From NCBI GenBank assembly GCA_903925285.1, contig CAIYET010001005.1:9703-73702 (forward strand): a DNA stretch of 64,000 bases. Reading direction: 5' to 3'. The translations under genes were made by a program, and so were the position numbers. This DNA comes from Candidatus Hydrogenedentota bacterium. GTDB taxonomy: Bacteria > Hydrogenedentota > Hydrogenedentia > Hydrogenedentales > SLHB01. The notes beneath the pieces were generated by a model that searched no databases, was not told the DNA's origin, and saw only the letters and a list, made by a program, of their open reading frames with translations. Shown piece by piece: positions 32,327 to 64,000 of this stretch (its first letter is position 1; each line of letters begins with the position of its first letter).

Positions 32327-32366
32327 TTGCTCTGAAGAAGGCAGAACCTTTTTCAAAGGAGTTACC

Positions 32367-37372: not shown

Positions 37373-37383
37373 TAGGGGGCTGT

Positions 37384-41301: not shown

Positions 41302-41432
41302 AGGGGCGGCCATGTTGCTTTATCTGGCGGTGCGCCGGCCGCCTATGCGGCATGGATGGATATTTTAGATGAAGTTATAGAGCGTTCCGGGGAGTTCCCA
41401 TGGGAAGCTCACGAAGAAGGGGAGGTCCGATA

Positions 41433-43706: not shown

Positions 43707-43708
43707 CC

Positions 43709-45879: not shown

Positions 45880-48800
45880 ATGATCCGCTTGATGATACCC
45901 ATGGAGAACCTTGATACGCTTGAAAAAGCGCGCGCCGGGCTTGTCTACCGAACCGACCTCCCCTATCACCTTTCCAATGGAGCCTTGGCCTTCCGGCGGG
46001 GCTGGGTCCGTCCTGAAGACGTGAAGGCCCTGAATCAGGCGAAGAAACAGGGCGATGCGGCGAGCGTGGTTGGCAAGTATGAATACGAAGCCGATATGTT
46101 CGACGAGGCCGAAGGGGAGCCGTGGGACAGCCCGAAGGCGGAAGCAAAGCCCGAAGATCCGGAAGCCATTGCCGGAAAAGAGAAATGGAACATTTCCGGA
46201 ATGGGCTCCGCAAAGGTTTCGGAATTTGTTGTAGCGGCTCCCGAAGTGAAGACGCCGGAATGGCAAGTATCTGCGGAGCCCGAGAAGTCTAAGGGACATA
46301 TCGCGTTCTTCGGGTCCGGGGAACGGCAAAAAGAGCTTTACCAACTTGATAACGGTGATATCTTCACCGCGTATCTGGGCGAAGTCATAGACATGGACAC
46401 AAAGAACAGGATCGGGCGATGGGAAGGCCCGGGCTGGCAAAAAGACACCATTATGAAAAACCTCGGCATTGTCCAAGAGACAGCCCCCGAGGCGAAGGAA
46501 GAGCCGAAAGAAGCGCCGGCCCTCGATATCCCGGGAGACATCGTTCCGGACGAAATGATCGCCCGGATTGTTCTTTCAGAGCGCCCGGAGGAAGCCCCCG
46601 AGGGATGGATTATTTTCAACGCACCCCGGCCGCTGGTGGGCACGAAGTTCTGGCAGGGCCCTTTCGTGTCCGGGCTTTACTACGCGGCGGTGGACCCTTC
46701 CGACCCGGTAGCCAAAGACTTCATAAGGTCGAACTATCGAGACGGGGCAAGCGTCCTCATGTACCAAACGGAAGAGGCCTATGCCGCCGGCAAGCGGAAG
46801 GAACTCGCGGCCGAATACGAAGACGAATTCAAGAAACATCCGGACCTGAAAGAGTCGTTCGACAAGTACACCGTGGAACAAATCCTCAGTATGGAGCCCC
46901 CCGCTACCACCAAAAAGCTCAAGGATTATCGTAGAGCGATCGAATCGACCTCCGGGGTCAAAACGGACGGGGTAAAGGCCCCGGACGCAGGGGCCAAGCA
47001 GGACGCCCCGGCGGCGGGCAAAACAGAGCCATCGACTATCGCGGAAAGGATATCCAAGCCCGAAATGCCGGACGGTGAAGAAGCGAAGACCGGCGACGTT
47101 CGATCCGACTTGGAACAGGCCATCGCGAAGATGAAGTTCGCGGACTATGGTTCGTGGTCGGCCTCGGGCAAGCACGTCGCGCCGGCGAAGCGCATGGAGT
47201 TGAATCAGCAAATCGCGGAACTCCTCCTCCTGCCCTCGAACGACCTGACGCCGCAAGAGCTTCAGGCCATCCGACAGTATTCAGGGTTCGGCGGCGTCAA
47301 GGCCGACGATGAACGCGGGGTCCTGTACGACTACTTCACGTCGCCCCCGGTGGCGCGCATGGTGTGGAAGCTGGCGAACAAGATCGTGCCCCTGAAGTCC
47401 GGTGCCCGGGCGCTCGAACCTTCCTGCGGGGCCGGCGTGTTCTTCGAGGTAGCGCCGCAAGGTGTCGACCTGACCGGCGTAGAGTTCGACAGCCGCACGT
47501 CGGCCGTGGCGGGGCTCCTGCAACCCCAAGCCCGCATCTACCATTCGTCCTTCGAGCAATTCAACCTCCACCAGAAAGAGAAGTTCGACGCCGTGATAGG
47601 CAACGCGCCCTTCGGCGACCGCTCTGTGGCGACCTCCTTCCTTGATGATCCCGACGAGAAGAGCCTTGACCGATACTTCGTCAGTCGATCGCTCGACAAC
47701 CTGAAGGGCGGCGGGACCATGGCGCTGATTGTCGCGCCCGGGGTGATGGACAATGTGTCCAACTCCGCATGGCGCTCGAAGATGCTCCGGAAGGGGCAAT
47801 TCATCGGCGCGATGCGACTGCCCAACCAGTCCTTCAAGCACACCAATACCGGCGTCTCCCCCGATATCGTCATGTTCCGGGCGTACCCTGAAGACATCAA
47901 GGCAAGGCTCGCGGTCATGTCGGATCAGGAAATGAAGGCCGCCGGCTTCTACGATGACGCATGGGTGGACGGGACCTACTACGACGAGTGCCCGGGGCAC
48001 CGCCTCGGGAGGGTGGAGCGCGGACAATTCGATTCCGAAATCACCGTGGGCAAGCTCGAACCGGCCGACATGGATCGAGCCCTTGAAGTGTTCGAGCCCC
48101 GAGAGCTTCATAGCGCGGAAGACTTCGGGAAGATACGGAACCTGACGCAAGGGACCCTGCCCGAGGCCCCTGATGAAAGCGAGAAGCTTTCCGAGCCCGA
48201 GGCTGAAGCTGTCGCGGCGAAGACCCTGCGCGTGGGGATGACGAAGAGCGAAAACGGGAAGATATACCGCCTGAACGAAAACCACCGATGGGAGCTTGTT
48301 CAAGCAGGAAGCGCGGTGGCGGCAAAGCTCGATCGGGTGAAGGAGATATCGGAAACCGTCCGCAAGATCCGCGAATCCATGCGCGCCGACGAGCCCGTGG
48401 ACGACCTTCAGCGTCAAGCCCGTAGCCTCGTGGAAGCCTATGAAAAGGACTTCGGGGTAAAGCACTCCGAAGACAAGGATATCCAGAAGTTCATCAAGGC
48501 CAACCCGGCGATCGCGAATGTCTACGAAGCCCTGACCATCGCTATAGATTCGGAACTTCTCACGAAGCAGAACGTCTACGACAAGGAAGTGGAAATCGTC
48601 GACGGGCACCGCCCCGCGATTCGCGCGCTCATGGAGCTTCAGCGGGACATGATGGACGCGACGAATGAATCCATCAAGGCCCGGTATCCGAATGGAGCCG
48701 AGGGGCTCATCGAGGCCATGTGGAGCGATCCCGACGTTTTCACTGACGACGCCGGGGTATTCAGGCTCCGCGAAGACTTCATTTCGGGCAACGCATGGGA

Positions 48801-51800
48801 GAAGATAGACGCCCTCGAAAAGGCCGTCGCCGATCACCCCGGGGACGAATGGGTGCGGAACCGCGAAAAGTGGCAAGCCGGCGCGGACGCCATGCGCGAT
48901 GCCGTGGGCTGGATTCCCGTAGAGGACGCCGACGTATTCCCGCAGGGCTCTTGGATTCCCGAAGACCTCATAAACCTCTGGGCTGGAAACGGCATGGGCC
49001 GTCCGGCGCGCAAGGGGTATCGGTACGCCAAGAATGAAGAGGGGAAATGGGGCCTTGCCGCGCTCAAGGGAGATTCCAAGTGGGACTGGAAGACAAGAGA
49101 ATATATCGAGACTAAAGAGGGGGACTGGCAGGAAGAGAACGATGAATTCATATACTTCCTGAACAACCAGAAACAGCGGTCAAAGTATACCGACACCGAA
49201 ACCTACAACAAAAACGCCGTCGGGAACTTCAAGGCATGGCTGGCTACCAATGAAGAGGCGCGCAAGGAAGTAGAGAACCTTTTCAACCGGAACTTCAATA
49301 CCGAACTTGGAGTCCCGACGAAGACCTACGCCGTCCACCTTGACGGATGGAACGATGAAGTGGTCCTTCAGCCGTGGCAATGGCAGACGATCCACCACCT
49401 GTACCGGCAGGGTAAGGGCCTGTCCGCGCTGGGCACGGGGTTCGGAAAGACGCTCGCGGCCGTGGGACTCTACGCGCTCCTGCGGCAGGAAGGAAAGACG
49501 CGGCGCGCTTTCTTCCAAGTGCCGAACAATAAGGTCAAGGATTGGGTGAAGACCTTCGCGAAGGCCATGCCGGGCCTGAAGGTCGGATCGGTGGACCCCG
49601 AGACGAAGGGTTACAACGACCAGACGAAGCGGTTTTCGTGGTATCAGGAACTTGCATCGGGCGATTACGACGTAATTATCCTCCCTGAGTCGTCTTCGAG
49701 CGAGATTCAACTGAATTCCGAGAATGACGACATGATCGTAGCCGACATTTCCTCCCAGATGACGACCACGGAAGGGAAGACCCAGCGGAAGAAGGAACAG
49801 GCCTTGGCCACGGCTGAAGGCAAGCTGTCCGGCGGAAAAAAGAACGTTACGATAACGTTTGAAGAACTAGGGTGCGATACGATTTTCTGCGATGAAATGC
49901 ACCGTATGAAGAATCTGTTCACGTCCAGCCTGTCCCGGGAAACGGGAATGAACGACGGCCGCCGATCGGACCGCGCGCTATCTTTCTTCAAGAAGTGCGA
50001 GTACATGCGCCGGGGCCACGAGGGCAAGGGCGTCTTCGGGCTCACGGCAACCCCGCTCACGAATTCGCCGCTCGAATACTACAACATGTTTTATCACATA
50101 GCCCCGGAAATGCTTTCAAGCATGGGGATCGCGAATATCGACGCTTTCATCAACAACTTCGCCAACATCGAAATGGGTCAAAAGATTGATTCATTCACCG
50201 GGCAAGTGAAGGACGGGAAGGTCCTCAAGGGGTTCAAGAATCTCAGGGCTCTTCAGGATATGTTCTTCAAGTACACCGACCTTCAGAACGATCCCACGAA
50301 GATCGGCCTGAAGAAGCCGACGCCCACGAACCGCCCGAACATCATCCCTATTCAGGAAACGCAGACGGCGGAGATCCGGGCCATAGCGGATGAAGTGAAA
50401 AAGTACCGGGAAATGTCGAAGGAAAAGCGCGCGGACATGCACGAAAACTTCCTGACGTACTATACCCGAATGAGAACCGCGTCCCTCGACCTCGAACTGT
50501 ACGACCCGGTGCGGTTCAAGGGGTGGAAGAATCCGAAGATCGAGAAGATGGTGGACTCGGCCATGGAAACGCTCAATGCGCGCGGCGGCGGGCAAGTAGT
50601 ATTCTGCGATCGCGTTGTTTCCAGCGATGGGACAATAAACATGCACGAGAAGATCAAGGCCGCCCTCGTCGCGAAGGGGTTTGCGGAAAATGAGATTGTC
50701 GTAGTGAATGGGCTCACGAAGTCGGGCACGAAAGCATCAGAACAGTCCCTTGAAAAGGAAGTGTCGTCCGCCATCGACGGGTTTAACTCGGGAAAGTACA
50801 AGATCATCATAGGCACCACGCAGACTATCGGGGAGGGCGTCAACCTTCAAAAGAACTCTTCCGCGCTTCACCACATGGACATCCCCTTCCGTCCCTCAGA
50901 CTTTATCCAGAGGAACGGCCGCATTGACAGGCAGGGGAACAAGCAGTCCACCGTCGAGCTTCATACCTACGCGACAGCCGGGACGATCGACAACTACAGC
51001 ATGGCCCTCGTCGCCGGCAAGGAAAACTGGATTAACCAACTCCTGAAGACGAAATCGAATGTCTTCACGAATCCGAACGGCGAGGGAATGGACATGGACG
51101 AAATCCTGCTGTCCCTCACGCAGGAATGGGGCGACCTGAAGGGCGCTGAAGAGCAGAAGGCGGCTCTAGCATCGAAGAAGGCGGCCGCAATCCAAGCGGA
51201 CAACCAGAAGAAGGCGCATGAATTCTTGCGGCAACTGTCGCTCATGCGCGGGTCCCTGATCGGCTACAAGGGCGACAAGGGGTCCCGGGACTACCAGAAT
51301 CGGTTGCGCAAGATAGACAACCTCGAAGCCGGCCTTCAGACAAACCCCGAATTCCGTCACCCCGAGATATTGGGGCAGGACACGGGACCATTCATGTACG
51401 ACGAGGGCCGCAAGCTCGTGATAAAGAAGGGGGACCTCGTAATATCCAGCGGCGGCGTGTACCGAGTCGCCGACTTTGACTACAAGGAACGGAAATACTT
51501 CTTGCTGTCGGCTATCGACGGGAAGTCGGGGGCCTACGAGAACGCCTATACAAGCGCGACCCAGCGATCGTACTATTCCGGCAACAGCGAGGACAATTTC
51601 ATCTTCGTGCCGAATCCTTCACAACCACAGGTGGATCGGTACATTTCCCTGATCGACCCGGAAGGGTTCTACAAGCAACCGAAAGCCTTCAAGGCGGATA
51701 ACTACGAAGAGTTCGTGAAGATAAACGCCCGTGGGCACAGTATCAAAGAGAAGTATTTCGCCATCAACAAGAAGGGCGAAATTTCAGGGAAGTTGGGAAG

Positions 51801-52287
51801 CCTCTATGAAGGGGAAACCGTGTTCAACCCGTTCACAGACAAGGGGCGCAAGAAGATAAGAGCCCTTGTTTCCGCCGGAAAGGTATCGCCCTCTCAATAT
51901 GAGCGATGGGAGGAGTCTTTCGGGGATCTCGGCGCGCGCGATATTCTCCACGAATCGGCGATTAAGGTATTCGATGCCCAGCCCCTTGCAAAGCCGGTCA
52001 TGGCCGCTTTCGACAAGGCCCCAAAGCTTTCCGACAGTTACTATAGGCACAATGATTGGGTCAACGTTGCGGACTTGGCAACGGAAATAGGGGAAGCCGA
52101 CGTTGACAACGTGGAGGAAGTTCTTAAAAAGCACCCCGACATAGAGACATCCTATCAGCTTGTCGGAGCTGGTCGCCGCTATGATCTTTATGCCCGCCGC
52201 AAGGGGGGGGTGCAAAAAGCATTGGGACACAGTAAAATAGTCGTAAAGGGGGAGCAAGTCTATGTACTACACGAACGAAGAAGTTGA
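45880..52287 (+). CDS. DarB-like polyvalent protein: N6-adenine DNA methyltransferase + SNF2/DExH helicase (2135 aa)
   Basis: MTase motif I LEPSCGAGVF (about nt 47413) and motif IV GNAPFG (about nt 47599). Helicase motifs GTGFGKT (about 49430), DEMH (49891), TATPLTNS, and QRNGRIDRQG (about 50908). N-terminal recurrent module. Confidence 0.8.
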   Translation: MIRLMIPMENLDTLEKARAGLVYRTDLPYHLSNGALAFRRGWVRPEDVKALNQAKKQGDAASVVGKYEYEADMFDEAEGEPWDSPKAEAKPEDPEAIAGKEKWNISGMGSAKVSEFVVAAPEVKTPEWQVSAEPEKSKGHIAFFGSGERQKELYQLDNGDIFTAYLGEVIDMDTKNRIGRWEGPGWQKDTIMKNLGIVQETAPEAKEEPKEAPALDIPGDIVPDEMIARIVLSERPEEAPEGWIIFNAPRPLVGTKFWQGPFVSGLYYAAVDPSDPVAKDFIRSNYRDGASVLMYQTEEAYAAGKRKELAAEYEDEFKKHPDLKESFDKYTVEQILSMEPPATTKKLKDYRRAIESTSGVKTDGVKAPDAGAKQDAPAAGKTEPSTIAERISKPEMPDGEEAKTGDVRSDLEQAIAKMKFADYGSWSASGKHVAPAKRMELNQQIAELLLLPSNDLTPQELQAIRQYSGFGGVKADDERGVLYDYFTSPPVARMVWKLANKIVPLKSGARALEPSCGAGVFFEVAPQGVDLTGVEFDSRTSAVAGLLQPQARIYHSSFEQFNLHQKEKFDAVIGNAPFGDRSVATSFLDDPDEKSLDRYFVSRSLDNLKGGGTMALIVAPGVMDNVSNSAWRSKMLRKGQFIGAMRLPNQSFKHTNTGVSPDIVMFRAYPEDIKARLAVMSDQEMKAAGFYDDAWVDGTYYDECPGHRLGRVERGQFDSEITVGKLEPADMDRALEVFEPRELHSAEDFGKIRNLTQGTLPEAPDESEKLSEPEAEAVAAKTLRVGMTKSENGKIYRLNENHRWELVQAGSAVAAKLDRVKEISETVRKIRESMRADEPVDDLQRQARSLVEAYEKDFGVKHSEDKDIQKFIKANPAIANVYEALTIAIDSELLTKQNVYDKEVEIVDGHRPAIRALMELQRDMMDATNESIKARYPNGAEGLIEAMWSDPDVFTDDAGVFRLREDFISGNAWEKIDALEKAVADHPGDEWVRNREKWQAGADAMRDAVGWIPVEDADVFPQGSWIPEDLINLWAGNGMGRPARKGYRYAKNEEGKWGLAALKGDSKWDWKTREYIETKEGDWQEENDEFIYFLNNQKQRSKYTDTETYNKNAVGNFKAWLATNEEARKEVENLFNRNFNTELGVPTKTYAVHLDGWNDEVVLQPWQWQTIHHLYRQGKGLSALGTGFGKTLAAVGLYALLRQEGKTRRAFFQVPNNKVKDWVKTFAKAMPGLKVGSVDPETKGYNDQTKRFSWYQELASGDYDVIILPESSSSEIQLNSENDDMIVADISSQMTTTEGKTQRKKEQALATAEGKLSGGKKNVTITFEELGCDTIFCDEMHRMKNLFTSSLSRETGMNDGRRSDRALSFFKKCEYMRRGHEGKGVFGLTATPLTNSPLEYYNMFYHIAPEMLSSMGIANIDAFINNFANIEMGQKIDSFTGQVKDGKVLKGFKNLRALQDMFFKYTDLQNDPTKIGLKKPTPTNRPNIIPIQETQTAEIRAIADEVKKYREMSKEKRADMHENFLTYYTRMRTASLDLELYDPVRFKGWKNPKIEKMVDSAMETLNARGGGQVVFCDRVVSSDGTINMHEKIKAALVAKGFAENEIVVVNGLTKSGTKASEQSLEKEVSSAIDGFNSGKYKIIIGTTQTIGEGVNLQKNSSALHHMDIPFRPSDFIQRNGRIDRQGNKQSTVELHTYATAGTIDNYSMALVAGKENWINQLLKTKSNVFTNPNGEGMDMDEILLSLTQEWGDLKGAEEQKAALASKKAAAIQADNQKKAHEFLRQLSLMRGSLIGYKGDKGSRDYQNRLRKIDNLEAGLQTNPEFRHPEILGQDTGPFMYDEGRKLVIKKGDLVISSGGVYRVADFDYKERKYFLLSAIDGKSGAYENAYTSATQRSYYSGNSEDNFIFVPNPSQPQVDRYISLIDPEGFYKQPKAFKADNYEEFVKINARGHSIKEKYFAINKKGEISGKLGSLYEGETVFNPFTDKGRKKIRALVSAGKVSPSQYERWEESFGDLGARDILHESAIKVFDAQPLAKPVMAAFDKAPKLSDSYYRHNDWVNVADLATEIGEADVDNVEEVLKKHPDIETSYQLVGAGRRYDLYARRKGGVQKALGHSKIVVKGEQVYVLHERRS

Positions 52288-52642
52288 CTCCTTCGAGAAA
52301 AAAGTGCAAATCCGGACCGGGGAATCCTACGTCCGGAAGATCGCCCTCGGGGTCGCCTCGATGCTTGAGGCTCAGCCATCCCTTTACAAGACCTTCGGCG
52401 TTTACTGGTGGGCAATCAAGGCCGCGCTCAAGAAATACTACCCCGGCAAGGCGTGGTTCATGGGGGGATATTTCGATCAACTCATGTACGAGCGGGCATG
52501 GCATGGATCGCTTTTCCGCACCGTACTGGCGGCAACTATCTACCATGGCAATCATCGGCTCATAACTTCAGGGCACGAATACATCGGGAAGGATGAAGAG
52601 GAGTATACCTATACGCTCTTCGATGAAGACGCAGGGTTTTAG
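52262..52642 (+). CDS. hypothetical protein
   Basis: GGGGGAG RBS. 126 aa. Overlaps the last 26 nt of the 2135-aa gene. Trp/Tyr-rich. Lacks the recurrent module. Confidence 0.45.
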   Translation: MYYTNEEVDSFEKKVQIRTGESYVRKIALGVASMLEAQPSLYKTFGVYWWAIKAALKKYYPGKAWFMGGYFDQLMYERAWHGSLFRTVLAATIYHGNHRLITSGHEYIGKDEEEYTYTLFDEDAGF

Positions 52643-52652
52643 GCGGGGGGAT

Positions 52653-53939
52653 ATGCGAATAATCTTAGTGGTTCCAGTATCGCGGGAAAGGATGCTGAAG
52701 GCTCTCAATACATCCCGCCTCGTCAAGAAAGAAGTCACCGTTCGGCGCGGCGGGAAGACATTCCAGCAAATGCGCTGGCTTCGCCCTGACCAAGTGGCCC
52801 CCGGGAGGAAGCCGTCCGCCCCTGTGGAACAGAAGCCGGCGCGGGAAAGCAAGCCCGTCGACAACTCCCACCCCCGGATAAAAAAAGACGATCCTGTATT
52901 GTTCAACTATCAGGGGAAGCAGATTCAGGCGAAAGTCATCGACGATACCCATAAAGAGGGCGTTGTCGCTCAGAGCGAGTCCGGGGAAAAGTTCAACGTC
53001 CGCTGGCAGGACATGGCGAAGAAGGCCGCCCCCGAGGCCGCCGCACTGCCAGAGGACAACGTACAGGCTCAGGTTGCGTGGATGATCGACCCCAGCCGGA
53101 CCGACAATTCCAAGAAGATCGACAAGAAACTCCTCGTCCAGCCGTCCGGGGATCTCGATGAACTCTACAAGCTGGCAGAGGAAGCCCGCGCCGGTTTCAG
53201 GCAGTTCATGGAGAAGGCCAAGAGCGATCTAGGGGCAAAGGCGCTTCTTTCCCGGCCTGTCCTGAAGAGCAAAGAGCGTATCCTTGAGAAGATGAAAGAG
53301 GACGGGGTTACGGATGCAAGCCAGATTTACGACATTGACGGCCATACCCTTGTGTTCGACGGCCTAGACGGGGTAGCGAAGGGGCTGAAGTATTTCATGG
53401 CGCAGGGCGCGGCAATCAGGATCAAGAACAACTATGCCAACCCTTCACCCGCCGGATACCGGGACGTGAATGTCAACATCAAGCTTCCTAACGGGATGAT
53501 ATCAGAGATCCAGATAAACACTGAAGCGATGATGGAGGCAAAGGAAGGGGTGGGGCATATCTTCTACGAGGTCATGCGCGAGGCTCTTGGAGCCCTGCCG
53601 CCCCCGCCGCCCCCGGCACCGTATGCTGATATACTGGAAGCACAAAAGGCTTTCTATAATTTCGCGTGGGAAACGTCACAGAAGGGTCAGGAAGACGCCA
53701 ACCTCAAGGCCTCGCTCTTGTCGATCGCGCGGCCTTTCTGGAACAAGTCGGCGAACAACTTGGGGGAGCGGGATTCAAGCTGGTTGTCGGACAAAACGCG
53801 GAAGAGGTTCATGGACTTCGGTTCCCAAGCGAATGGAACATCGTCCTTCTCGAAGAACTCAAGTCCCTCGGTCGTCAAGTCTATCTTGGGCATCTTGTTC
53901 CCTCCACGCTCAAAGTATAGACGCGGTTTCCGGGCATGA
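52653..53939 (+). CDS. RelA/SpoT-homologue (small alarmone synthetase-like nucleotidyl pyrophosphokinase) domain protein with the recurrent N-terminal module
   Basis: Internal ATG (MRIILVVPVS) in frame with track ORF 52593..53939. Synthetase-domain pattern LKSKERILEKM...IYDIDGHTLVF...NPSPAGYRDVNVNIKLPNGMISEIQINTEAMMEAKEGVGHIFYE, to be compared with RelA_SpoT KSxxSIxxK / DxxGxR / GYRSxH / EIQIRT...H..Y. Confidence 0.7.
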   Translation: MRIILVVPVSRERMLKALNTSRLVKKEVTVRRGGKTFQQMRWLRPDQVAPGRKPSAPVEQKPARESKPVDNSHPRIKKDDPVLFNYQGKQIQAKVIDDTHKEGVVAQSESGEKFNVRWQDMAKKAAPEAAALPEDNVQAQVAWMIDPSRTDNSKKIDKKLLVQPSGDLDELYKLAEEARAGFRQFMEKAKSDLGAKALLSRPVLKSKERILEKMKEDGVTDASQIYDIDGHTLVFDGLDGVAKGLKYFMAQGAAIRIKNNYANPSPAGYRDVNVNIKLPNGMISEIQINTEAMMEAKEGVGHIFYEVMREALGALPPPPPPAPYADILEAQKAFYNFAWETSQKGQEDANLKASLLSIARPFWNKSANNLGERDSSWLSDKTRKRFMDFGSQANGTSSFSKNSSPSVVKSILGILFPPRSKYRRGFRA

Positions 53940-56900
53940 CAAGTAAGGCGGCAACTTTTATGGAAAAGGCTCTCGACCGCTCGAAACTCATAAAGACGCC
54001 GACGATCATGCACGTCGACGGCAAAGCCTTCCCGACATACCGCTGGAAGGCGCGGCCCGAAGCAGAGCCCGCAGAGCCACCCCGGGCGGAAGCCCCGCCC
54101 GCCGGCTATGTCCCTACGAAGACCGTAACGTCCTACAAGCTCTTCCGGGTAAGCAAGGATCATCCCGGGGAAATCTTCCCGCTGTTCGTTGACGCCAACA
54201 CCCCCATACCCTTCGGCGAATGGGTGGCGGCCAAGCCCGGCGACAGGGACCCCAAGGTAACGGACCATGTGAAATCCAAGCTGGGACCCCTAGCCTATCG
54301 CCCCGGCTTCCATGCCGGCAGAATCCCCGTCGCTACCCATATCGGGCTGAAGGTGAAGAAAAACGACAAGGCCCCATCCTTCCGCAACCCTGATTATGTA
54401 TGGGCTGAAGTAACCTTCGCCGATGACGTTGACTGGCAGTCCGAAGCCGCTCGCCGGGCTGTCCGGGGGAAGGATGGACAGGTCATAGCGCGGACCGCCC
54501 ATATCACCGATCAAGTTCCGTATGGGGGGTACTACTCTTACAAGACGAACTCGAATATGACGGGCGAGTGGATGATATCGGGGACCATGAAGGTAAACCG
54601 CATCCTGACCGACGCCGAAGTGGCCGAAATCAACGAAAAGACGAAGTTTTCGGACCTCCCAAGGGTTGAACCGCTTGATATCTCCGTGTATGGGTTCGGC
54701 AAAGACGGCCGGCCGGCAAAGTCTGTCCAACTACTTCCGGATAGGGACTTCTACGACTATCAAGACTCGCACATGGAGAAGACCCATAAGCGCCTTTTCT
54801 ACATTGACGACTTGGACAACCAATACGCTGAATGGATCGAGAACGCTGGCGACATAGGCCGGGAACTTGCCTCGCATCAAGAAACAGCCGACCCCTTGTA
54901 CATTGGGGAAAAGCTCCGGAAGTTGTCGAAGGTCTTTATATTCGCCGAGTCCTCCCGGGCCGATCTGGGCTTTGTTGATACCAGCTTTTCTTTCCCGAAG
55001 ACCGATAGGGCGATAATCAAGGAATATGTCCGGCAATACGATGAATATAAGGGAAATCTAGGGGTGCTGGGGCAAGCATCGAAGTCGCTTTCTTATGCGT
55101 TATTGTCGAGGAATGGCCCCATGTTCCTTGAGGCTTTTATAGATTTTGTCGCGAAATACAACGTCCTGAAACAATCGCAGGGGTTCGAGAAGACAAAGCT
55201 TCCCGATAGCCTATCCCGCCTCGTCGACGACAGGATGCAGAAATATGGGGCTCCTTCCCCGGTAGCGCCCAAAGAGGATGACAGCGAATTCAAGCGGGCC
55301 GGAAAGACCGTCGACGGCCTTGAAGTGCTGGACGATATCCCGAACACATCGTCGATAGGCTCTTCCTTGAACGAATATGAATCCCTCCCGGGGATTCGTG
55401 AAGTTCCCATGAGCGTGTTCAGTGATCCAGATCCGTATAAAAATTACTATGCGGCCGACGATATCGACCGGACATACCGGCTGGCTGAAGAAATAAAACA
55501 ATCCGGACAGATTAAGCCGCTGATTGTCGTGATGGACAAGAAGGGTCCCTATATCCTAGAGGGCGGGCACCGCTGGTCGGCGCTGGGGGTTCTCGGGAAG
55601 AAGTCTTTCCCAGCTCTTGTGGTGATGGACACGGAAGACACCGGCGTTGAAAAGGCCCTCGATTATTCAAAGCTCTCCAAGGTGCCCGTCGTCGCGCATG
55701 CCAAGGTGGGGGACTATCAAACCTCCCGATGGAAGAAGAGGGAAGAGCCGGCGGCCGCCCCTAACCCGGCTCCCGTGCAGAGTGTGGCGGACTTCATTTC
55801 GTTCATGTACCAGCTTCCCCGAAACGCCGTGAATCAAGTGAACATTGAAAAGATCGACGATATAGACCCCGCGCTTGCGGAGGAACTTCGCAACAACAAG
55901 GAAGTGTTCAAGAAAAAGCTCTGTTACAACAACTCTTGGCAAGCGGCGTCGATGGCCGATGGCATTGGGAAAAAAGTGAACTATGTGGAGGGTTTTGTCG
56001 CCCTTGGTGTCGGCGGTTGCATGATCCCAATAGACCACGCTTGGAACTCGATAGAGGTGAACGGAGAAACAAAGTATTTCGACGTTACCAACGATATCGT
56101 ATGGGGCGGCGATATGTCGGTTCAAAAAAACGGATACGTCCCCCTATATGCAACGGACGACCTTCTCACCATAGGAAAATATATAGGGCGAAGCCCGGTG
56201 ACAAAGGCTTTCGAGGCCATGCGCAAGATTCGGGCCGCCGCCCGGGATTCCGACATGCCGCCCTCTTTCGCGTCCGTTCTTTCCACCCTGAAGGATAAGG
56301 TGGGCGAGGTCAAGAAGTCCCTGACCTACGGCGGGCACCCCCTTGAGGACCGCTACAAGGTTCACGGCATGGATATCTCGATCGAGACAAAGAAGGGCTC
56401 CACGCGGCGCGGGACCGACAAGGACGGGCACGAGTGGGCGACGAAAATGAACGCCGACTACGGGTATATCCGGGGCACCGTGGGCAAGGATAAAGACCAT
56501 CTTGATTGCTATGTCGGCCCGAATCCTGAATCCACGAAGGTTTTCATAGTCCATCAAAACGATCCGACGACAGGGAAGTATGACGAAGACAAGGTTATGC
56601 TCGGGTTCGAGTCGGCCGCCGAGGCCAAGGCGCTCTACATGAAGCAGTACGACCGCCCGGGGTTCTTTGGCTCGATGGATGAAACCGATATCGAGAAGAT
56701 GAAGGAAAGGGCGTTCTCCAAAGAGGCCAAAGGCAGGATTCTTGTGGTCAAGTCCGTCGACGGGGAACTGGAAGAGCGGGCCGGCAAGGGATATTCCCGG
56801 CTGGACAAGCTCATCGAAAGGAAGTATGGGCCGGAAGTAATGATAGGAGTAGAAGTGGAGTTGGAGCATACTGGAAGCCGCGAAGAGGCCAAGAGGATCG

Positions 56901-58690
56901 CGCTCGATCACCTTCATCAAGACTATCACTATTACTCGAAGCTCATTGCGGCCGGGCTTGTCGATGAGCCAAGGGCTCTGGCGATAGCGAAAGAGGAAGG
57001 TGTCGATATGAAGAAGTCGCTACGGCTTATGGTCCCGATTCTCGACAAGGCCATGAAGTCCTCGAAGCTGATCCTTCAAACGAAGATGGTCACGCGCGAG
57101 GGCACGACCTTCCCGATGAAGGTGTGGGTCCTGCCCGGGGAAGCGAGCCATGCCGCGCAGTTCGATATGTTCGAGGCGGCCGAAGTGGACGACACGGTGA
57201 AGAAGATCGCCCCCCGGGAGCCCGAGCGAGATCCCGTGAAGATCGAGGCGGCTATCCAGTCGGCAACCCCCGAAACCCGCAACGAGGTCCAAGCGGTCCT
57301 GTTTGGAGCGAAGGAGGAGGAGCCCGAGGCCGCCGAGCCCCCGTATGAGTTCACCCCGGGACGCCGCACGGTTTCGGCCTACAATGGGCATGGCTACACG
57401 AGTCAGGAGGAGCTAGAAGACTATACTGGCGTATTCCCTAAGAGAATGAAGCTGATTCGGCAAGCCAAGGCCCTCAACGATCCGCGCCCTTCATGGATAC
57501 CGGCGGCCGACGAGGGAGCTTTCTCTGGGTGGAAATGGGAGCGCCGATTCCCGTATGCGAGGATCGCCCCTAACGAATATGTTGTTCAGGTCACGAAGGA
57601 AAAGATGGTGATTATGAGCGCGGACGTGCTGATAGCCACCACGAACTACTACAAGGCGAGGGAAAAAGAGCGCCGGAGGATTGAAGCAGACAAGTGGAAT
57701 CAGGACAAGAGGGAACGTGCAAGAATATGGCTGGAAGAACACAAGAACGACGACGACGATAAGAACCGGGAATTTAGATATAAATCCAATATCAAATACT
57801 ATCGCGAAGTAGTAGATGGAAAGAGGTTTCAGAAACCCAAGGCTGTCGTTGCCATGGGTTCAAACAAAATGTGCCATGACCAATCGTGTATCATCAAGAA
57901 ATACTCCGAAGACGATGACTATTCCATGTGGACCCATCTTCACGATGCCATGGAAGAGCTTGACCAGAAAGCGATCGACATGCAACTTCAGGCCGAAGAC
58001 GATGGTAACACCTACTCGAAGGGGGAAAAGACCTCCTACGGGAACATGGGTACGAAGGACACCCTGCTTGAGAAGTACGGCGTCAAGGTCAAGCGGCAGA
58101 ACGGGAAAGAGATTACCGATACCGAAACCGAAGAGATAAAGGCCGCCTTGGACCACATATTTTCCATTTTCGGCGACAGGTCTTCCATGGCGCGCACGTT
58201 CGGGCTGAAGATATCCCATGCGGCCGAAACCGCCATGCACGCTCGAAAGGCAATCGGAATCTTCTTCCCCTCCCATCGGGCTATCGGCGTGTCGGCCGGC
58301 GGCGGGGCGAAGCAGTTCGGGTTCACCCTTTCCCACGAGTGGGCGCACTTCATGGACAACTACCTTGGGGGGGACAAGTACCACTATTCCTCGGACGACT
58401 TCAAGTCCATTTCCCACGCGATAGCGAATACCTTCAAGTCGAATATGGCGAAGAAACAGAAGAGCGACTACCAGAACCGGACATGCGAGTGCTTCGCCCG
58501 GGCCTTCGAGCAATACTTTGCCATGAAGACCGGGGATGGCGACGAATACCAGCGGATGATGTCTGACGCCGGGAACCACCCCTCGAACGATGTTTTCCTG
58601 AAAGAAGTGTCCCCGCTGATAGATAGATTTTTTTCCGAGCGCGGCGATATGCTGAAGGCCATGAAGATTACTTTGTGGTCAATAAGATAG
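53936..58690 (+). CDS. 1584-aa polyvalent protein with ParB/Srx-like, transglutaminase-like Cys peptidase, PPase-like and HExxH zincin domains
   Basis: ATGA overlap. ParB-like KPLIVVMDKKGPYILEGGHRWSAL (about nt 55530). Cys/His/Asp triad candidates CYNNSWQAA ... IDHAWNSIEVNGETKYFDVT (about 55920-56090). YGYIRGTVGKDKDHLDCYVGP (PPase-like, about 56460). LSHEWAHFMD plus CECFARAFEQYF (about 58330-58510). Three copies of the recurrent module. Confidence 0.75.
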   Translation: MTSKAATFMEKALDRSKLIKTPTIMHVDGKAFPTYRWKARPEAEPAEPPRAEAPPAGYVPTKTVTSYKLFRVSKDHPGEIFPLFVDANTPIPFGEWVAAKPGDRDPKVTDHVKSKLGPLAYRPGFHAGRIPVATHIGLKVKKNDKAPSFRNPDYVWAEVTFADDVDWQSEAARRAVRGKDGQVIARTAHITDQVPYGGYYSYKTNSNMTGEWMISGTMKVNRILTDAEVAEINEKTKFSDLPRVEPLDISVYGFGKDGRPAKSVQLLPDRDFYDYQDSHMEKTHKRLFYIDDLDNQYAEWIENAGDIGRELASHQETADPLYIGEKLRKLSKVFIFAESSRADLGFVDTSFSFPKTDRAIIKEYVRQYDEYKGNLGVLGQASKSLSYALLSRNGPMFLEAFIDFVAKYNVLKQSQGFEKTKLPDSLSRLVDDRMQKYGAPSPVAPKEDDSEFKRAGKTVDGLEVLDDIPNTSSIGSSLNEYESLPGIREVPMSVFSDPDPYKNYYAADDIDRTYRLAEEIKQSGQIKPLIVVMDKKGPYILEGGHRWSALGVLGKKSFPALVVMDTEDTGVEKALDYSKLSKVPVVAHAKVGDYQTSRWKKREEPAAAPNPAPVQSVADFISFMYQLPRNAVNQVNIEKIDDIDPALAEELRNNKEVFKKKLCYNNSWQAASMADGIGKKVNYVEGFVALGVGGCMIPIDHAWNSIEVNGETKYFDVTNDIVWGGDMSVQKNGYVPLYATDDLLTIGKYIGRSPVTKAFEAMRKIRAAARDSDMPPSFASVLSTLKDKVGEVKKSLTYGGHPLEDRYKVHGMDISIETKKGSTRRGTDKDGHEWATKMNADYGYIRGTVGKDKDHLDCYVGPNPESTKVFIVHQNDPTTGKYDEDKVMLGFESAAEAKALYMKQYDRPGFFGSMDETDIEKMKERAFSKEAKGRILVVKSVDGELEERAGKGYSRLDKLIERKYGPEVMIGVEVELEHTGSREEAKRIALDHLHQDYHYYSKLIAAGLVDEPRALAIAKEEGVDMKKSLRLMVPILDKAMKSSKLILQTKMVTREGTTFPMKVWVLPGEASHAAQFDMFEAAEVDDTVKKIAPREPERDPVKIEAAIQSATPETRNEVQAVLFGAKEEEPEAAEPPYEFTPGRRTVSAYNGHGYTSQEELEDYTGVFPKRMKLIRQAKALNDPRPSWIPAADEGAFSGWKWERRFPYARIAPNEYVVQVTKEKMVIMSADVLIATTNYYKAREKERRRIEADKWNQDKRERARIWLEEHKNDDDDKNREFRYKSNIKYYREVVDGKRFQKPKAVVAMGSNKMCHDQSCIIKKYSEDDDYSMWTHLHDAMEELDQKAIDMQLQAEDDGNTYSKGEKTSYGNMGTKDTLLEKYGVKVKRQNGKEITDTETEEIKAALDHIFSIFGDRSSMARTFGLKISHAAETAMHARKAIGIFFPSHRAIGVSAGGGAKQFGFTLSHEWAHFMDNYLGGDKYHYSSDDFKSISHAIANTFKSNMAKKQKSDYQNRTCECFARAFEQYFAMKTGDGDEYQRMMSDAGNHPSNDVFLKEVSPLIDRFFSERGDMLKAMKITLWSIR

Positions 58691-58700
58691 GAGGAAGAGT

Positions 58701-61700
58701 ATGGCAACCAAGATACAAGTCAGGCGCGGAACGGCCGCCGAATGGACAAGCGCAAACCCTACCCTCGCGGAAGGCGAGCCCGGTCTTGAAACCGATACCG
58801 GGTTGGAGAAGCGTGGCGACGGCGCTACGGCATGGACCGCTCTGGCCTACCACCTCCCCAAGCAGATTCACGGTGTCGCCGGCAAGACCACGCCGGTTGA
58901 CGCCGACGAGTTCGGCATCATCGACACGGCGGCATCGAACGCGCTGAAGAAGCTCACCTTCGCCAACCTCTTGGCTACGATATGGACCCGGCTCGGGGCG
59001 CTCATAGCGGGGGGAACGGACAAGGCCACGCCGGCCGACGCCGACACGCTGGGGCTCGCCGACAGCGCGGCGTCCAGCGCGACGAAGAAGCTGACCTTCG
59101 CAAACCTGTGGATATGGGTGAAGGCCAAGGTAACGGCCCTTACCGCGAAGGCAACCCCCGTGGACGCCGATAGCGTCCTCATAAACGACAGCGAAGCGTC
59201 CGGGGTGCCCAAGCAGACGACCCTGACCAATTTCAAGGCCTTCCTGAAGACCTACTTTGATGGCATCTACGGCGCGCTGGCCAATACACCGGATCTCGCG
59301 GGCAAGGGCGCGGCCGATGACATCGGGGACGCCTCGGGCGCTTCGACGGCGGCGAAGATACTTGCGCTCGTGGAATCCGTCGGGGGGGCAGGCTCGGGGC
59401 TCGATGCGGACCTGCTGGACGGGCAACACGCCTCTTTCTTCACCAACCTCGACAATCTTAGCGGGGGAGCCACCTACGCGCGCACCACGATCGTTGGCGC
59501 GGCCGCCGCGAATGATATCGGCGGGTCCACCGGCGTCCTTATCAAGGACAAGCTGATAACCGCCATAGCGGCCTCGGCCGCCGGTACTTCCATGCTCCGG
59601 GCGACAGACGCCGCCGCGCAAAGGGCCTTGCTTTCCGTGGAGGAGAACGCGGATGTAACCGATGCCGCGAATGTGGGCGCGGCGATCCATGGGGCGGCCG
59701 CGAAGACGACGCCGATCGACGCCGACACGCTGGCGGGGATCAATTCCGCAAGCTCGAACGTCCTGACCAAGTTCACCTTCGCAAATCTCTGGGTATGGGT
59801 ACAAGCCAAGATCGCGGCCGCTTCGAGCAAGACCACGCCCGTCGACGCGGACTCCATCCTTGGGGTGGACAGCGAAGCCTCAAGCGTCTCGAAGCGGTTC
59901 ACCTTCGCAAACCTCGGGACATGGATATGGACGAAGCTGGGCGCACTCATCGCGGGTGGAACCTCGAAAGTGACTCCGCTTGACGCCGACACTCTCCCCC
60001 TTTCCAGCGCGGCGGATACCAATGCAACCAGAAAGCTTCTGTGGTCGAACCTGAAAGCCACCATGGCGGCCGCGCTGATCCACGGTGGAAGCAACGAAAT
60101 ATCGACCGCTACACCGGCGGAGAACGCCATACCAAAGGCAACAGCCGGGTCCAAGCTGGACGGATGGATAAGCGATGCCACGGCGCTGGTGAAGGGCTTG
60201 ATGCTTCTCGGGGCTGTCGGCGGGGCCGTAAAAGACACGAAAATGCCGGACGGGGCGACTGCGGTTTCAGGGGGATCGCAGGACGCTTGGGCAACGGTTG
60301 ACGGGTGGTCAAACAATTATGGAACACTATCGGTAGCCGCCGAATCCGGATGGCTTCGTGTTACAGCGTCGTCGACCAATGCTGATATGCTGAAAGATAT
60401 TAGTGGCATTGCTGGTAAAACACTGGCCGTAAGGATAAAAGCCAGTAAGTCAGTCAACCTTTCTGTCATTGCAGTAAGCACCCTTACTGTGTTGCAGACT
60501 ATTGCGGTTGGTGTATCTGTGTCGGTGTATCTTATTCAGTTGCCCGCAAACGCAACCAGAGTGAGATTTTTGATGGACCCCTGTTCCGCAAATGACTGGT
60601 TTGCGATGGATTGGTTTTGGGTTGGGGATTATTCCTACCTCGCCGCCTCCCTTTCTGAGGAAGCGGCACGAATAGTGAACCAGATCGGCGATTCTGCCGG
60701 GCTTCCGGTGGCCGCCTCCGCTACCATTACGAGCAATACGACCAACGTAAACGTACAGGCCACCGGCATATTTACTACCGATGCAAGCCTCCCTGTGGCC
60801 GGGGCAACGTTCAGCGTGAACGGGACCCTCTACACTTGGGTAACAGGGAAAACTCCGAACACGGAAGGCGAAGTTCTGATCGGCGCGACCGTGGCCGACT
60901 GCCTGACCAATGCGAAGAACGCCGTCAACGGGGACGCAGGGACCAAGGGAACCACGCACTTCTGCACGGCCAATGCCTATGCAACGGCGGCGGCCGACGC
61001 CACGAAGATAACGGTAACAGCCATTCTGCGGGGAACGGTCGGAAACGCCTATACGCTCGCCGTGTCTGGAACCGCTTGCCATCTGACCATAAGTGCGGGG
61101 ACGATGGGCTCGGGGGCTGGGGCGACGGCCGGCGTCGATGACACCGTTACTGTTGCCGGGAAGGCCTACAAGTTCGTCGGCCAAACTCCCGCGAACGAAG
61201 GCGAAGTAAAGGTCGGGTCTGGCGCGGCGGTTTCTCTGGCCAACCTTGCGGATGCACTCAACCGAAGAGCGGCCAGTGTTTTGGACGGGTCCTCCTATAA
61301 GGTTGCGGCCCGGCATCCGCTGGTGTACTCGACCTACCTCGGCGCTGGCTATGTAATGAGCCTATTTGCCGGCGTTGCCTTGGACACGAACCCCAGCACC
61401 TTCGTACCCAACCCCGGGGAACTCGGCAACCAGATTACCTTGGCCAAGTCGGCAACCACCCTCACCCTGTCCGGAGCAACCTTCAACGGCGGCGTGAGCG
61501 ATGCGTCCGCGAAGATCAAGGCGCTGGTCGAACAGAACAGCAACTTCGATATCCCGCTCACGACCGAAACGGCGCTCCTGACCACCCTGCTTGGGACCAC
61601 GGGGGCGAACCTCGCGGCCAAGCTCGCGGCGGCAACGGCGGCGGCAACCACTTCCGAACAGGGCGTCGTCGAATTCGCGACGGCGGCTGAGATTGTCGCG

Positions 61701-64000
61701 GCGTCCGATGATACCCGGGCCGTGAACGTGAAACAGCTTCGGGACGCGATGGACCTCGCTGGAATGTTCATCATGAAGCGGACGAAGATGCCTGACGGGG
61801 GAACTGCCCTGTATTCTCAGGACGCTTGGTCGACCACGGACACATGGGGGAGCGATGGTTCTCCTTCTCCTTCGGTGGCTGGTGGAGTAATCACATTCAA
61901 GTATAACTTGTATAAAACCATTGCCAGCATCTATGGTAAGACAATAATTCTAAGGATACGATGTACTTCGGGGAATACGACATTATATGTCAAAGCCCCT
62001 GCCGCTGAAACCTATCTTCTGGCTACGGTAGCATTAACGCAGAACCAGTGGACCAATGTTTCGGCGACAATACCTGCGGCCATGAGCGGATCACAGGTAT
62101 TGCTTAAAGGTGGAGCCTCGGACGTATTCGAGATAGATTGGGTATGGGTCGGAGATCCCGACGCCACAACGAAACAGTTCTACCTTGCCGGTTCGCTATC
62201 CGAAGAGGCCACCCGAATCATAGACAGAATTGGAGACTCGCAGGGTACTGGTGTTGCGGCAAGCGGGACTATCTCGGCAGGGACAGGAAACTTCGCTGTA
62301 GATGATACGGTCACAATCGGTGGTAAAGCGTTTACCGCAAAAGATACGACCGCCAACTTGACCGCAGAGGGCCATTTCCTTATTAGTGATACGCTGGGAC
62401 ACTCGATAGAGAATCTTAATCGCGCGATAAACAGAACAACTCCCGCAACCTACGACAAGTCCGTAAGCGGTTCTGATCCCCGATACTATTGCACGGTGGC
62501 CCATACGCTTGTTTCTTCCGCGATGCCCGGAGCAACCATAAATCTTTCAGCCCTCCTCGTAGGAGAGACCGGGAACTATATCACCCTTGCTACAAGTGTT
62601 TCTGCGAAAGCAGTTCTTTCCGGCGCAACACTAACAGGGGGAATATCCGACGCCGGCGCGAAGCTGTCATGGTTGGTTTCCCGGTCCTCTCAACTTCTTG
62701 CCGCGAAGACAACCTTGACGACGGCTGACTATATCACCCTTCTCGACGCGGCCGATGGCTTGTTAAAGAAGAAAATCACCGTTGCCAATCTCTTGACGAC
62801 CCTTGCGGCGACGACTGATGCCGCCGGATTCGCGGAACAACTTCTTGCCGCCGAAATACTCGCGGGCTCGGATACAACCAGATTCATGGGTGCAAAGGGG
62901 TTGCTTGATTCCCTCGCCCTTGACGGGATGTGGATTCCCCGAAGGGTTAAATTCCCTGACGGGGCGACGGGCGCAGAGTACAACAAGACATCATTCGGAA
63001 CTACGGATACATGGTCGGTCGGTGATGCAAACTCTTCGCTTTCGGCTGTTTCAGGAAAGCTCGCCCTAGCCATAACCGGGGGAGCATCGGCCTACCGTCT
63101 GATTAGAACCAGCACCCTTGCGGTGGGGTCTGGATTTATCGGGATTGAAATTAACACAAACTCCAATGTAACAAAAGTGGAGTATTACAACGGAACGGGA
63201 TGGGTGGAACTTACAACCAAAAACATTGGGGCAACGTTCTCCCGGTATTATGCCCATACCGCCATTGCGGTAGGATATGCCTTTTTGCAGTTCCGGTTCA
63301 CCGTGTCGGGCAACACGACGATCAATACTACCGGAATTTATTATGGTATTCCCTCCTACTTGTTTGGGTCCATATCCGAAGAAGGGGAAAGGATTGCCAC
63401 GCAAGTTGCCGATGCCACGGGGGTCGGTAAGGCCGCCGGGGCCACGATTCTGTCGAACCATACCAATGTAACGGATGGTGACACGGTAACGATCGCTGGA
63501 AAGACCTATATCTTCAAAACGACACTAAGTACAGGACCAACGGTTGAAGGAGAGGTCTTGAAGGGGGCCATCTTTGCCAACACCCTCGACAGGCTGGCGG
63601 CCGCGATCAACCATACGGGAACCCCCGGAACAGACTATACGGCGGCGGCCGCTCATCCTCTGGTTTGGGCTCAGGCAACCCTTGGGCCAAACTACGATAT
63701 GGTCTGGCTCTATGCGAGAACCGCCGGCGCGCTCGGGAATCAACTAACCCTCGCAAAGTCAGCCGTTACCATCACGCTTTCCGGGTCCACCTTCTCGGGG
63801 GGATACTCCGATGCGGCGCGGAAAATACAGACAATATCGGCCAATGCCAATGGCGATATTGCTCTTGCGGCTACTGATATCGGGTTTATTCAGATAGTAG
63901 ACGCGGCCATCGGGGCAACGACGGTCCCCGGAGCGGCAGGAACGTGGTGGCTATGGGAAATCCCCGGCTCCTACGGGGCTACGATAGGATCGGCCAAGCG
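58701..64000 (+). CDS. giant tail-fibre / receptor-binding-like protein, 3'-truncated by the window edge (>1766 codons; not in the ORF track)
   Basis: ATG at 58701 after GGAGGAAG. I hand-translated the whole frame to nt 64000 and found no stop. The N terminus MATKIQVRRGTAAEWTSANPTLAEGEPGLETDTGLEKRGDGATAW matches the conserved fibre/hyaluronidase (HylP) / Mtd_N-type opening. Contains LDADLLDGQHASFF and repeated modules. Confidence 0.8.
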   Translation, partial: MATKIQVRRGTAAEWTSANPTLAEGEPGLETDTGLEKRGDGATAWTALAYHLPKQIHGVAGKTTPVDADEFGIIDTAASNALKKLTFANLLATIWTRLGALIAGGTDKATPADADTLGLADSAASSATKKLTFANLWIWVKAKVTALTAKATPVDADSVLINDSEASGVPKQTTLTNFKAFLKTYFDGIYGALANTPDLAGKGAADDIGDASGASTAAKILALVESVGGAGSGLDADLLDGQHASFFTNLDNLSGGATYARTTIVGAAAANDIGGSTGVLIKDKLITAIAASAAGTSMLRATDAAAQRALLSVEENADVTDAANVGAAIHGAAAKTTPIDADTLAGINSASSNVLTKFTFANLWVWVQAKIAAASSKTTPVDADSILGVDSEASSVSKRFTFANLGTWIWTKLGALIAGGTSKVTPLDADTLPLSSAADTNATRKLLWSNLKATMAAALIHGGSNEISTATPAENAIPKATAGSKLDGWISDATALVKGLMLLGAVGGAVKDTKMPDGATAVSGGSQDAWATVDGWSNNYGTLSVAAESGWLRVTASSTNADMLKDISGIAGKTLAVRIKASKSVNLSVIAVSTLTVLQTIAVGVSVSVYLIQLPANATRVRFLMDPCSANDWFAMDWFWVGDYSYLAASLSEEAARIVNQIGDSAGLPVAASATITSNTTNVNVQATGIFTTDASLPVAGATFSVNGTLYTWVTGKTPNTEGEVLIGATVADCLTNAKNAVNGDAGTKGTTHFCTANAYATAAADATKITVTAILRGTVGNAYTLAVSGTACHLTISAGTMGSGAGATAGVDDTVTVAGKAYKFVGQTPANEGEVKVGSGAAVSLANLADALNRRAASVLDGSSYKVAARHPLVYSTYLGAGYVMSLFAGVALDTNPSTFVPNPGELGNQITLAKSATTLTLSGATFNGGVSDASAKIKALVEQNSNFDIPLTTETALLTTLLGTTGANLAAKLAAATAAATTSEQGVVEFATAAEIVAASDDTRAVNVKQLRDAMDLAGMFIMKRTKMPDGGTALYSQDAWSTTDTWGSDGSPSPSVAGGVITFKYNLYKTIASIYGKTIILRIRCTSGNTTLYVKAPAAETYLLATVALTQNQWTNVSATIPAAMSGSQVLLKGGASDVFEIDWVWVGDPDATTKQFYLAGSLSEEATRIIDRIGDSQGTGVAASGTISAGTGNFAVDDTVTIGGKAFTAKDTTANLTAEGHFLISDTLGHSIENLNRAINRTTPATYDKSVSGSDPRYYCTVAHTLVSSAMPGATINLSALLVGETGNYITLATSVSAKAVLSGATLTGGISDAGAKLSWLVSRSSQLLAAKTTLTTADYITLLDAADGLLKKKITVANLLTTLAATTDAAGFAEQLLAAEILAGSDTTRFMGAKGLLDSLALDGMWIPRRVKFPDGATGAEYNKTSFGTTDTWSVGDANSSLSAVSGKLALAITGGASAYRLIRTSTLAVGSGFIGIEINTNSNVTKVEYYNGTGWVELTTKNIGATFSRYYAHTAIAVGYAFLQFRFTVSGNTTINTTGIYYGIPSYLFGSISEEGERIATQVADATGVGKAAGATILSNHTNVTDGDTVTIAGKTYIFKTTLSTGPTVEGEVLKGAIFANTLDRLAAAINHTGTPGTDYTAAAAHPLVWAQATLGPNYDMVWLYARTAGALGNQLTLAKSAVTITLSGSTFSGGYSDAARKIQTISANANGDIALAATDIGFIQIVDAAIGATTVPGAAGTWWLWEIPGSYGATIGSAK

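Follow-up and report, generated by a model that had tools for sequence, protein, structure and literature searches.

What is encoded at the end of a phage-derived DNA stretch where the list of open reading frames (ORFs) offers long minus-strand ORFs and no long plus-strand one? The stretch analysed here, hereafter the window, comprises 64,000 nucleotides (positions 9,703 to 73,702 of contig CAIYET010001005.1, GenBank assembly GCA_903925285.1, filed under Candidatus Hydrogenedentota bacterium), and the element in question is a plus-strand frame that opens at position 58701 of the window and is still open at its edge; we call it the fibre gene and its product the fibre protein. Our best reading is that it encodes a trimeric adhesin of the tail-fibre type, whose anchor is conserved and whose distal part can be exchanged; we consider it probable that it is a late structural gene of an uncultured phage of about 83 kb with a contractile-tail-type baseplate, and that its 1,791-amino-acid (aa) product is a host-adhesion fibre. 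Long modular phage fibres are a known kind of protein; what is unusual here is the presence of three complete units in one chain, of two undescribed and widespread domains, and the location of the gene within the head module, amid presumably injected anti-defence proteins.

The initial annotation had read a giant ORF from 58701 to the window edge, and this is indeed what we find: 1,766 codons without a single stop, the final complete codon ending at 63998, and a translation that opens exactly with the quoted MATKIQVRRGTAAEWTSANPTLAEGEPGLETDTGLEKRGDG. The other five frames of the same segment (58701–64000) contain 22 to 78 stops each; about 63 would be expected in 1,766 codons from the base composition, and the probability of finding none is about 1e-28. 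The nearest in-frame upstream stop is a TAA at 58683–58685, so that ATG 58701 is the first possible initiation codon. It lies 10 nt after the TAG (58688–58690) of the upstream gene, which encodes a 1,584-aa protein, and behind the strong ribosome-binding site that had been pointed out at this place, GGAGGAAG (58690..58697, read from the sequence), whose GGAGG is 6 nt upstream of the ATG and which shares the last base of the upstream TAG. The complete product is present in the protein database as P0001 (1,791 aa, 100% identity and coverage), on a contig of 83,217 bp; the window thus holds codons 1–1766 of 1,791, and the stop, predicted to fall outside the window, is located 25 codons past its edge. 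The fibre gene is missing from the ORF list because this list omits ORFs that run off the end of the source, and its “hidden” status is an artefact of ORF listing, not biology. A gene of 5.4 kb, about 6% of the phage genome, would be missed by any ORF caller dropping partial ORFs, with four spurious antisense ORFs delivered instead.

The plus frame is coding and under purifying selection, as judged from its codon-aligned comparison with a homologue, P0002 (1,500 aa), encoded on a related phage contig (L001, Logan SRR30464892): dN/dS is 0.10 over aa 1–520 and 0.24 over aa 520–1035. The GC content of the gene is 0.66 at the third codon position, versus 0.55 at the first and 0.54 at the second, and alanine, threonine, glycine and serine make up 47% of the residues of the protein, a fibre-like composition.

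A fibre or receptor-binding protein had been proposed on the basis of an N terminus common to the hyaluronidase fibres of streptococcal prophages (HylP) and to Mtd, the major tropism determinant of a Bordetella phage, and both resemblances hold when these residues are searched against the two families, within the first 60 residues or so. The Pfam family Mtd_N (PF18454) matches aa 5–43 (58713..58829; this and all features of the fibre gene given below are on the plus strand) over profile positions 1–37 of 37, with E=1.4e-12 and 47.7 bits for a cut-off of 26.3; it is the sole Pfam match in the fibre protein, and P0002 likewise scores above the cut-off of this family. The HylP chains 6x3m, 2yvv, 2dp5, 2c3f and 3eka of the Protein Data Bank (PDB) match aa 4–62 (phmmer, E=9e-5 to 4e-4), and the PHROG families “tail fiber protein” and “hyaluronidase” match aa 3–54 alone. 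Among cultured phages (tblastn), the match is limited to aa 1–106 and leads to structural or tail-fibre proteins of cyanophages and to an “esterase” of an Arthrobacter phage. Beyond about aa 60, the Pfam, PHROG and PDB searches found no similarity to Mtd or HylP; the likeness concerns about 60 of 1,791 residues, i.e., about 3% of the fibre protein, and about 97% of the protein is without a curated family or solved relative. This N-terminal domain is presumed to be a virion-anchoring beta-prism; in Bordetella phage BPP-1, the N-terminal beta-prism of Mtd has been described as the part by which the Mtd trimer presumably joins the tail fibre (PMC10743442).

Behind the anchor, the protein is built of repeats and modules, which are visible by tiled self-comparison; self-BLAST of the whole protein returned the identity match alone. 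Three repeats of about 44 aa, of the form K(T/A)TPxDAD...KK(L/F)TFANL, occupy aa 58–189 (58872..59267), and a repeat detected at the DNA level (D3) falls within this block. They are followed by a spacer with a LDADLLDGQHASFF motif (aa 190–330; 59268..59690), read from the translation and lying within the segment aa 1–520 that is the best conserved in P0002, and by three further repeats (aa 331–462; 59691..60086), both repeat blocks being found by self-comparison and with a custom hidden Markov model (HMM). The consensus, K-T-T-P-x-D-A-D ... K-K-L-T-F-A-N-L, is thus present in six full copies; a degenerate seventh, recognised by the same two means, forms part of the linker of units 2 and 3 described below (aa 1334–1374; 62700..62822). 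As no Pfam family or solved structure matches it, the TPxDAD repeat appears to be an undescribed fibre-shaft repeat. It is widespread in contigs of environmental metagenomes, where we counted 55 loci (L007–L061) at 30–71% identity; these loci, obtained by scanning metagenomes with aa 1–522, are all TPxDAD-repeat relatives over short segments, and none of them comes from the phage's own lineage.

The distal part of the fibre protein consists of three units with a common plan: a beta-sandwich domain that we call JR, starting at a KxTKMPDG motif and ending with IDWxWxGDxSYL, then a short SLSEEAARI helix, then one or two alpha/beta domains of about 125 aa that we call X. In unit 1, the JR domain (aa 511–645; 60231..60635) begins at the KxTKMPDG motif and stops before the SLSEEAARI helix; it was delimited with a custom HMM and alignments A1 and A4, and its fold is transferred from the model of unit 3. 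Two X domains follow (aa 670–805 and 810–931; 60708..61493; custom HMM, alignment A3), and a linker with a EFATAAEIVAASDDTRAVNVKQLRDA motif (aa 932–1025; 61494..61775), just after which the nucleotide homology with L001 stops, leads to unit 2, made of a JR domain (aa 1026–1153), the SLSEE helix and a single X domain (aa 1185–1315), together 61776..62645 (self-comparison, custom HMM). Unit 3 (62940..63806; custom HMM, AlphaFold2 model) has the same composition, with a JR domain at aa 1414–1552, a SISEE helix and an X domain at aa 1577–1702. The protein ends with a tip of about 85 aa (aa 1703–1791; 63807..64000) known from the P0001 sequence, the final 25 aa being beyond the window. The three units are mutually 26–34% identical and are therefore old duplications or independent acquisitions, not recent repeats.

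We then turned to structure. In an AlphaFold2 model of aa 1408–1791, the predicted local distance difference test score (pLDDT) exceeds 90 for X, lies at 60–80 for JR and falls below 50 for the tip. Searched against the PDB with Foldseek, the JR model, whose pLDDT is 60–80, has as its top matches the carbohydrate-binding modules (CBM) CBM70, CBM29 and CBM6 and a xylanase CBM (template-modelling (TM) score on the target 0.47–0.64, E ~2e-3 to 1e-2), the hyaluronan-binding module of a pneumococcal lyase being among these matches. Modelled alone, X reaches a pLDDT of 94.8. Against the PDB it most resembles, if weakly, the outer (protrusion) domains of the sheath proteins of contractile tails (8kee of cyanophage A-1(L), 9khy of Mu) and domains D2/D3 of the flagellar proteins FliD and FliC (query TM 0.55; E=2.5e-3 and 8.7e-3); at the sequence level, the best PDB match of the X profile is a sheath protein chain, 8fop “gp20”, with E=0.22, over a ...LTAR.AG..GN... 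motif. In the viral structure library BFVD, the nearest entries belong to phages PhiJL001 and RcTitan and are uncharacterised. X further occurs, as two copies, within the hypervariable central region of bacterial flagellins (P0040, P0046), which have Flagellin_N and Flagellin_C at their ends. The likeness to sheath, FliD and FliC domains, together with this presence in flagellin variable regions, suggests that X is a surface-display domain common to phage fibres, sheaths and flagella. The resemblance is at the level of the fold and is weak: sheath outer domains and flagellin D2/D3 are, like X, solvent-exposed domains on filaments, whereas X here belongs to a fibre instead of being an insertion into the core of a sheath protein or flagellin.

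How common is this architecture? A JR-X profile (alignment A1) run against 1.84 billion representative proteins gave 2,552 matches at E<=1e-3, 80 of them at E<=1e-30; most of the matches among those listed are made via X alone, which is often repeated, with up to ten matched stretches per protein. When 188 proteins were scanned with the custom HMMs, exactly one JR was found in 42, and more than one in only two, the fibre protein itself (three JR, four X) and its near relative P0002 (two JR, three X). The tandem triple unit is thus an unusual feature of the fibre protein, the sole protein we have seen with three complete units. Single-unit homologues such as P0003, P0021 and P0023, uncharacterised fibres of metagenomic phages, are 490–1,050 aa long, with E-values down to 1e-116. 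All share with the fibre protein the KxTKMPDG...IDWIWIGDYSYL beta-sandwich, the SLSEEAARI helix and the X domain, and differ from it by having one unit only, other N-terminal anchors and genes placed at the end of the tail module. P0003 combines one JR-X unit with TPxDAD repeats and a C-terminal SGNH esterase; P0023, a stand-alone protein of 522 aa, has a tip in common with the fibre protein. Two widespread and previously undescribed building blocks are thereby defined, a CBM-like beta-sandwich and the X domain. The phage itself is without a close cultured relative, identity reaching at most 29% for the portal and at most 35% for the terminase; megablast of 52000–64000 against 50,697 phage records gave no match, and nothing was found when IMG/VR viral contigs were scanned with peptide patterns from the fibre protein.

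The related contig L001 reveals how the gene varies. Its gene order is that of the window, and DNA identity is 73–84% over most of the regions of the DarB-like gene, the RelA/SpoT-like gene and the 5' part of the fibre gene. Within the latter, nucleotide homology (blastn) ends at 61800, i.e., at aa ~1033, the start of the JR domain of unit 2. At the protein level, identity to P0002 drops from 87.5% (aa 1–520) to 70% (aa 520–1035) and to 28% beyond aa 1035, and P0002 terminates in a different tip of about 200 aa. The upstream InPase protein is also a mosaic, with 1,584 aa in the window versus 612 aa in L001 and three inserted stretches. A conserved N-terminal anchor followed by a divergent, exchanged distal part, as seen here against P0002, is what one usually sees in host-range determinants, and it supports the reading as a fibre or receptor-binding protein.

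Gene position is a further element of the argument. The genes of the single-unit homologues are located at the end of the tail module in three other phage contigs: that of P0003 immediately follows the genes for the tape measure, Dit and Tal, while those of P0021 and P0023 each close a late block as its last large gene, with small holin-like genes behind. It is because of the repeat and module architecture, of the distal replacement relative to the related phage and of these tail-module positions that we favour a fibre. In the mechanism we propose, the Mtd_N/HylP-type domain would trimerise as a beta-prism and dock the fibre onto another virion protein; the six 44-aa TPxDAD repeats and the spacer would form the shaft; the three divergent units, in each of which a short helix connects a CBM-like beta-sandwich to one or two X domains exposed at the surface, would constitute, with the tip, several nodes binding polysaccharides of the cell surface; and the distal units may be swapped by recombination at the conserved linker motifs, which would change the host range.

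Several points weigh against this proposal. The CBM-like assignment leans on a model of medium confidence (pLDDT 60–80) and on weak Foldseek matches (E ~2e-3), and searching the JR, X and 44-aa repeat profiles against Pfam and the PDB sequences returned nothing significant. The fibre gene also stands outside the tail module, whose baseplate and fibre genes are at 4–11 kb, and comes after the portal, a MuF-like protein and polyvalent proteins; in L001, it is found between the portal and the protease and major capsid genes, among polyvalent proteins, a place that would also suit a head or neck fibre. The initial annotation had already remarked that the gene lies away from the other fibres, and rightly so; it had also put the gene after the effector block, and this has to be amended, since L001 shows it inside the polyvalent block. 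Downstream of the fibre gene, L001 has two small ORFs, then genes for a 1,683-aa SNF2-type helicase, for a head protease/scaffold-like protein and for the major head protein. As the fibre gene thus comes before the protease and the major capsid protein, it sits in the head module.

A bolder reading is a three-headed single-chain adhesin, in which each CBM-like/X unit would have its own surface glycan, possibly encoded in a mosaic “host-range island” of the head module. This island would unite the adsorption determinant with the capsid-packaged polyvalent proteins acting against host defence (DarB-like, RelA/SpoT-like, InPase), and the two layers of host range would then be exchanged as one; alternatively, such an adhesin might be mounted on the head or neck. 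We regard this elaborate scenario as unlikely, but the position among injected anti-defence proteins does hint that the determinants of adsorption may be transferred along with those of anti-restriction, to be taken as a lead and not as a result.

A plainer version, to which we give little credence as well, is that of a head or neck fibre, i.e., a capsid-decorating fibre or whisker assembled on the capsid or connector and making a reversible first contact with cells or surfaces. It is suggested only by gene position: the fibre gene follows the portal, the MuF-like protein and the polyvalent proteins, and in the syntenic L001 the helicase, then the head protease/scaffold and the major head protein, are encoded downstream. 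The structural matches of X in BFVD include entries that bear the names major capsid protein and major tail protein, and a surface enzyme whose gene stands apart from the tail genes may decorate the capsid, as does gp84 of phage phi24B (bioRxiv 10.64898/2026.04.10.717836). However, Mtd_N is known from tail-fibre-associated proteins (Mtd, HylP), the single-unit homologues are at tail-module ends, and fibre genes distant from the baseplate genes are common. One of them is gp31 of Arthrobacter phage Anekin, which bears an Mtd_N domain and is encoded after the lysis cassette; Mtd_N proteins outside the core tail block therefore have a precedent.

The neighbourhood could also be taken to mean that the fibre protein is no external fibre at all and is packaged in the capsid and injected, like its neighbours. 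It is indeed flanked by the DarB-like, RelA/SpoT-like and InPase/ParB_N/LPD1 proteins, with the giant SNF2-type helicase following in L001; such polyvalent proteins are thought to be capsid-packaged and injected (PMC5512222), and the fibre protein is of similar size. We hold this to be very improbable and rejected it: polyvalent effectors carry several effector, enzymatic or LPD domains per chain (Iyer et al. 2017), whereas the fibre protein has no enzymatic or LPD domain, Mtd_N being the only Pfam domain found, its composition is fibre-like, and its Mtd_N anchor, fibre-type repeats and beta-sandwich units are carried by tail-module proteins of other phages.

The N-terminal homology to both Mtd and HylP raises the question of whether the fibre protein is an Mtd-like target of a diversity-generating retroelement (DGR) or a HylP-like hyaluronidase or depolymerase; with the likeness ending at about aa 60, either would be most surprising. 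Mtd (BPP-1; PDB 1YU0) shares the N-terminal domain of about 40 residues and, if we are right on the role of the fibre protein, the function of host recognition in a tailed phage; but Mtd has 381 aa and, besides a beta-sandwich, a variable domain of the C-type-lectin kind that is rewritten by a DGR. In the 1,791-aa fibre protein, no lectin-type Pfam domain was found at E<=1, the C-terminal part being a JR/X unit and a small tip, and within the 64-kb window no direct repeat links the 3' part of the gene to another locus, as a DGR template/variable pair would. We therefore discarded the DGR-target option. As for the streptococcal prophage hyaluronidases HylP1, HylP2 and HylP3 (PDB 2c3f, 2dp5, 2yvv, 6x3m), their N-terminal ~55 residues align and they too are fibre-like virion proteins; nevertheless, their triple-stranded beta-helix bearing the lyase site has no match in the fibre protein, which has other repeats and globular units, and the PDB alignments stop short of this catalytic beta-helix. 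The hyaluronidase was thus rejected too.

Finally, that the long plus frame is not a gene and that the minus-strand ORFs are the real ones is hardly conceivable: these four ORFs (58668..59804, 59474..60316, 60450..61316 and 61349..61774) are long (141–378 aa) and present in the ORF list, as the initial annotation had it, but the stop-codon statistics, dN/dS and third-position GC given above all speak for the plus frame, whose product finds matches in Pfam, PHROG and the PDB and has over 2,500 homologues, whereas none of the four matches Pfam. They are shadows of the plus-strand gene, as had been proposed; long open antisense frames are to be expected here because the coding frame is GC-rich and rich in alanine, glycine and threonine.

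Coming back to the favoured tail-fibre-type adhesin, its general design is a familiar one. Fibres of more than 1,000 residues in which the proximal part is conserved and the distal, receptor-binding part can be exchanged are exemplified by gp34–gp37 of phage T4 and pb1 of phage T5, and their genes may lie off the baseplate genes. No sequence similarity to them is known, and the fibre protein differs from them by stringing three complete binding-type units in one chain.

Small ORFs (46–89 aa) are present directly downstream of the fibre homologues on three contigs (L001, 14514–15228; L003, 13152–13292; L005, 4010–4189). BLAST revealed no significant similarity between them that would point to a shared chaperone, the only likeness being a loose C-terminal “...EY..L...(F/Y)G”; they might encode a fibre-assembly factor, or the resemblance might be due to chance.

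Directly upstream of the fibre gene are three large genes of the polyvalent/effector type (45880–58690). The first (45880–52287) encodes a DarB-like methyltransferase-helicase of 2,135 aa (N6_Mtase, ResIII and Helicase_C; an N6-methyltransferase joined to a ResIII/SNF2 helicase), the second (52593–53939) a RelA/SpoT-like nucleotidyltransferase of 448 aa (RelA_SpoT), and the third (53936–58690) the 1,584-aa protein with InPase, ParB_N, DUF5661 and LPD1 domains. They are preceded by the portal gene (39586–41301) and by a gene for a protein with a MuF/head-morphogenesis-like region (43574–44887); a 768-aa ORF right after the portal gene (41400–43706) has no match in Pfam or PHROG. The large terminase gene is at 25442–27031, and the gap of 12.5 kb from terminase to portal is mostly filled with genes without a known role and also holds a sigma-factor-like gene (29791–30531), a possible minus-strand ORF (32196–33392) and a tRNA-Gln (37301–37373). 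Between the tail and packaging genes, a module for recombination and replication (14634–21385; 14.6–21.4 kb) encodes a RecE-like exonuclease, an SbcC-like protein (phrog_1499), a RecT-like annealing protein and helicase loaders of the DnaD-like and DnaC-like types.

The tail lysin, baseplate wedge and tail-fibre genes are grouped at 1691–11370. One of these tail-fibre genes (8126–9538) contains three tandem repeats of 192 nt (64 aa) at 8847–9422, with 100, 73 and 61% identity, and a 92-nt segment of it (8552–8643) is 72% identical to positions 10669–10760 of a fibre-like gene (10198–11370). Besides the fibre gene at 58701, the baseplate module of the phage therefore supplies two or more others.

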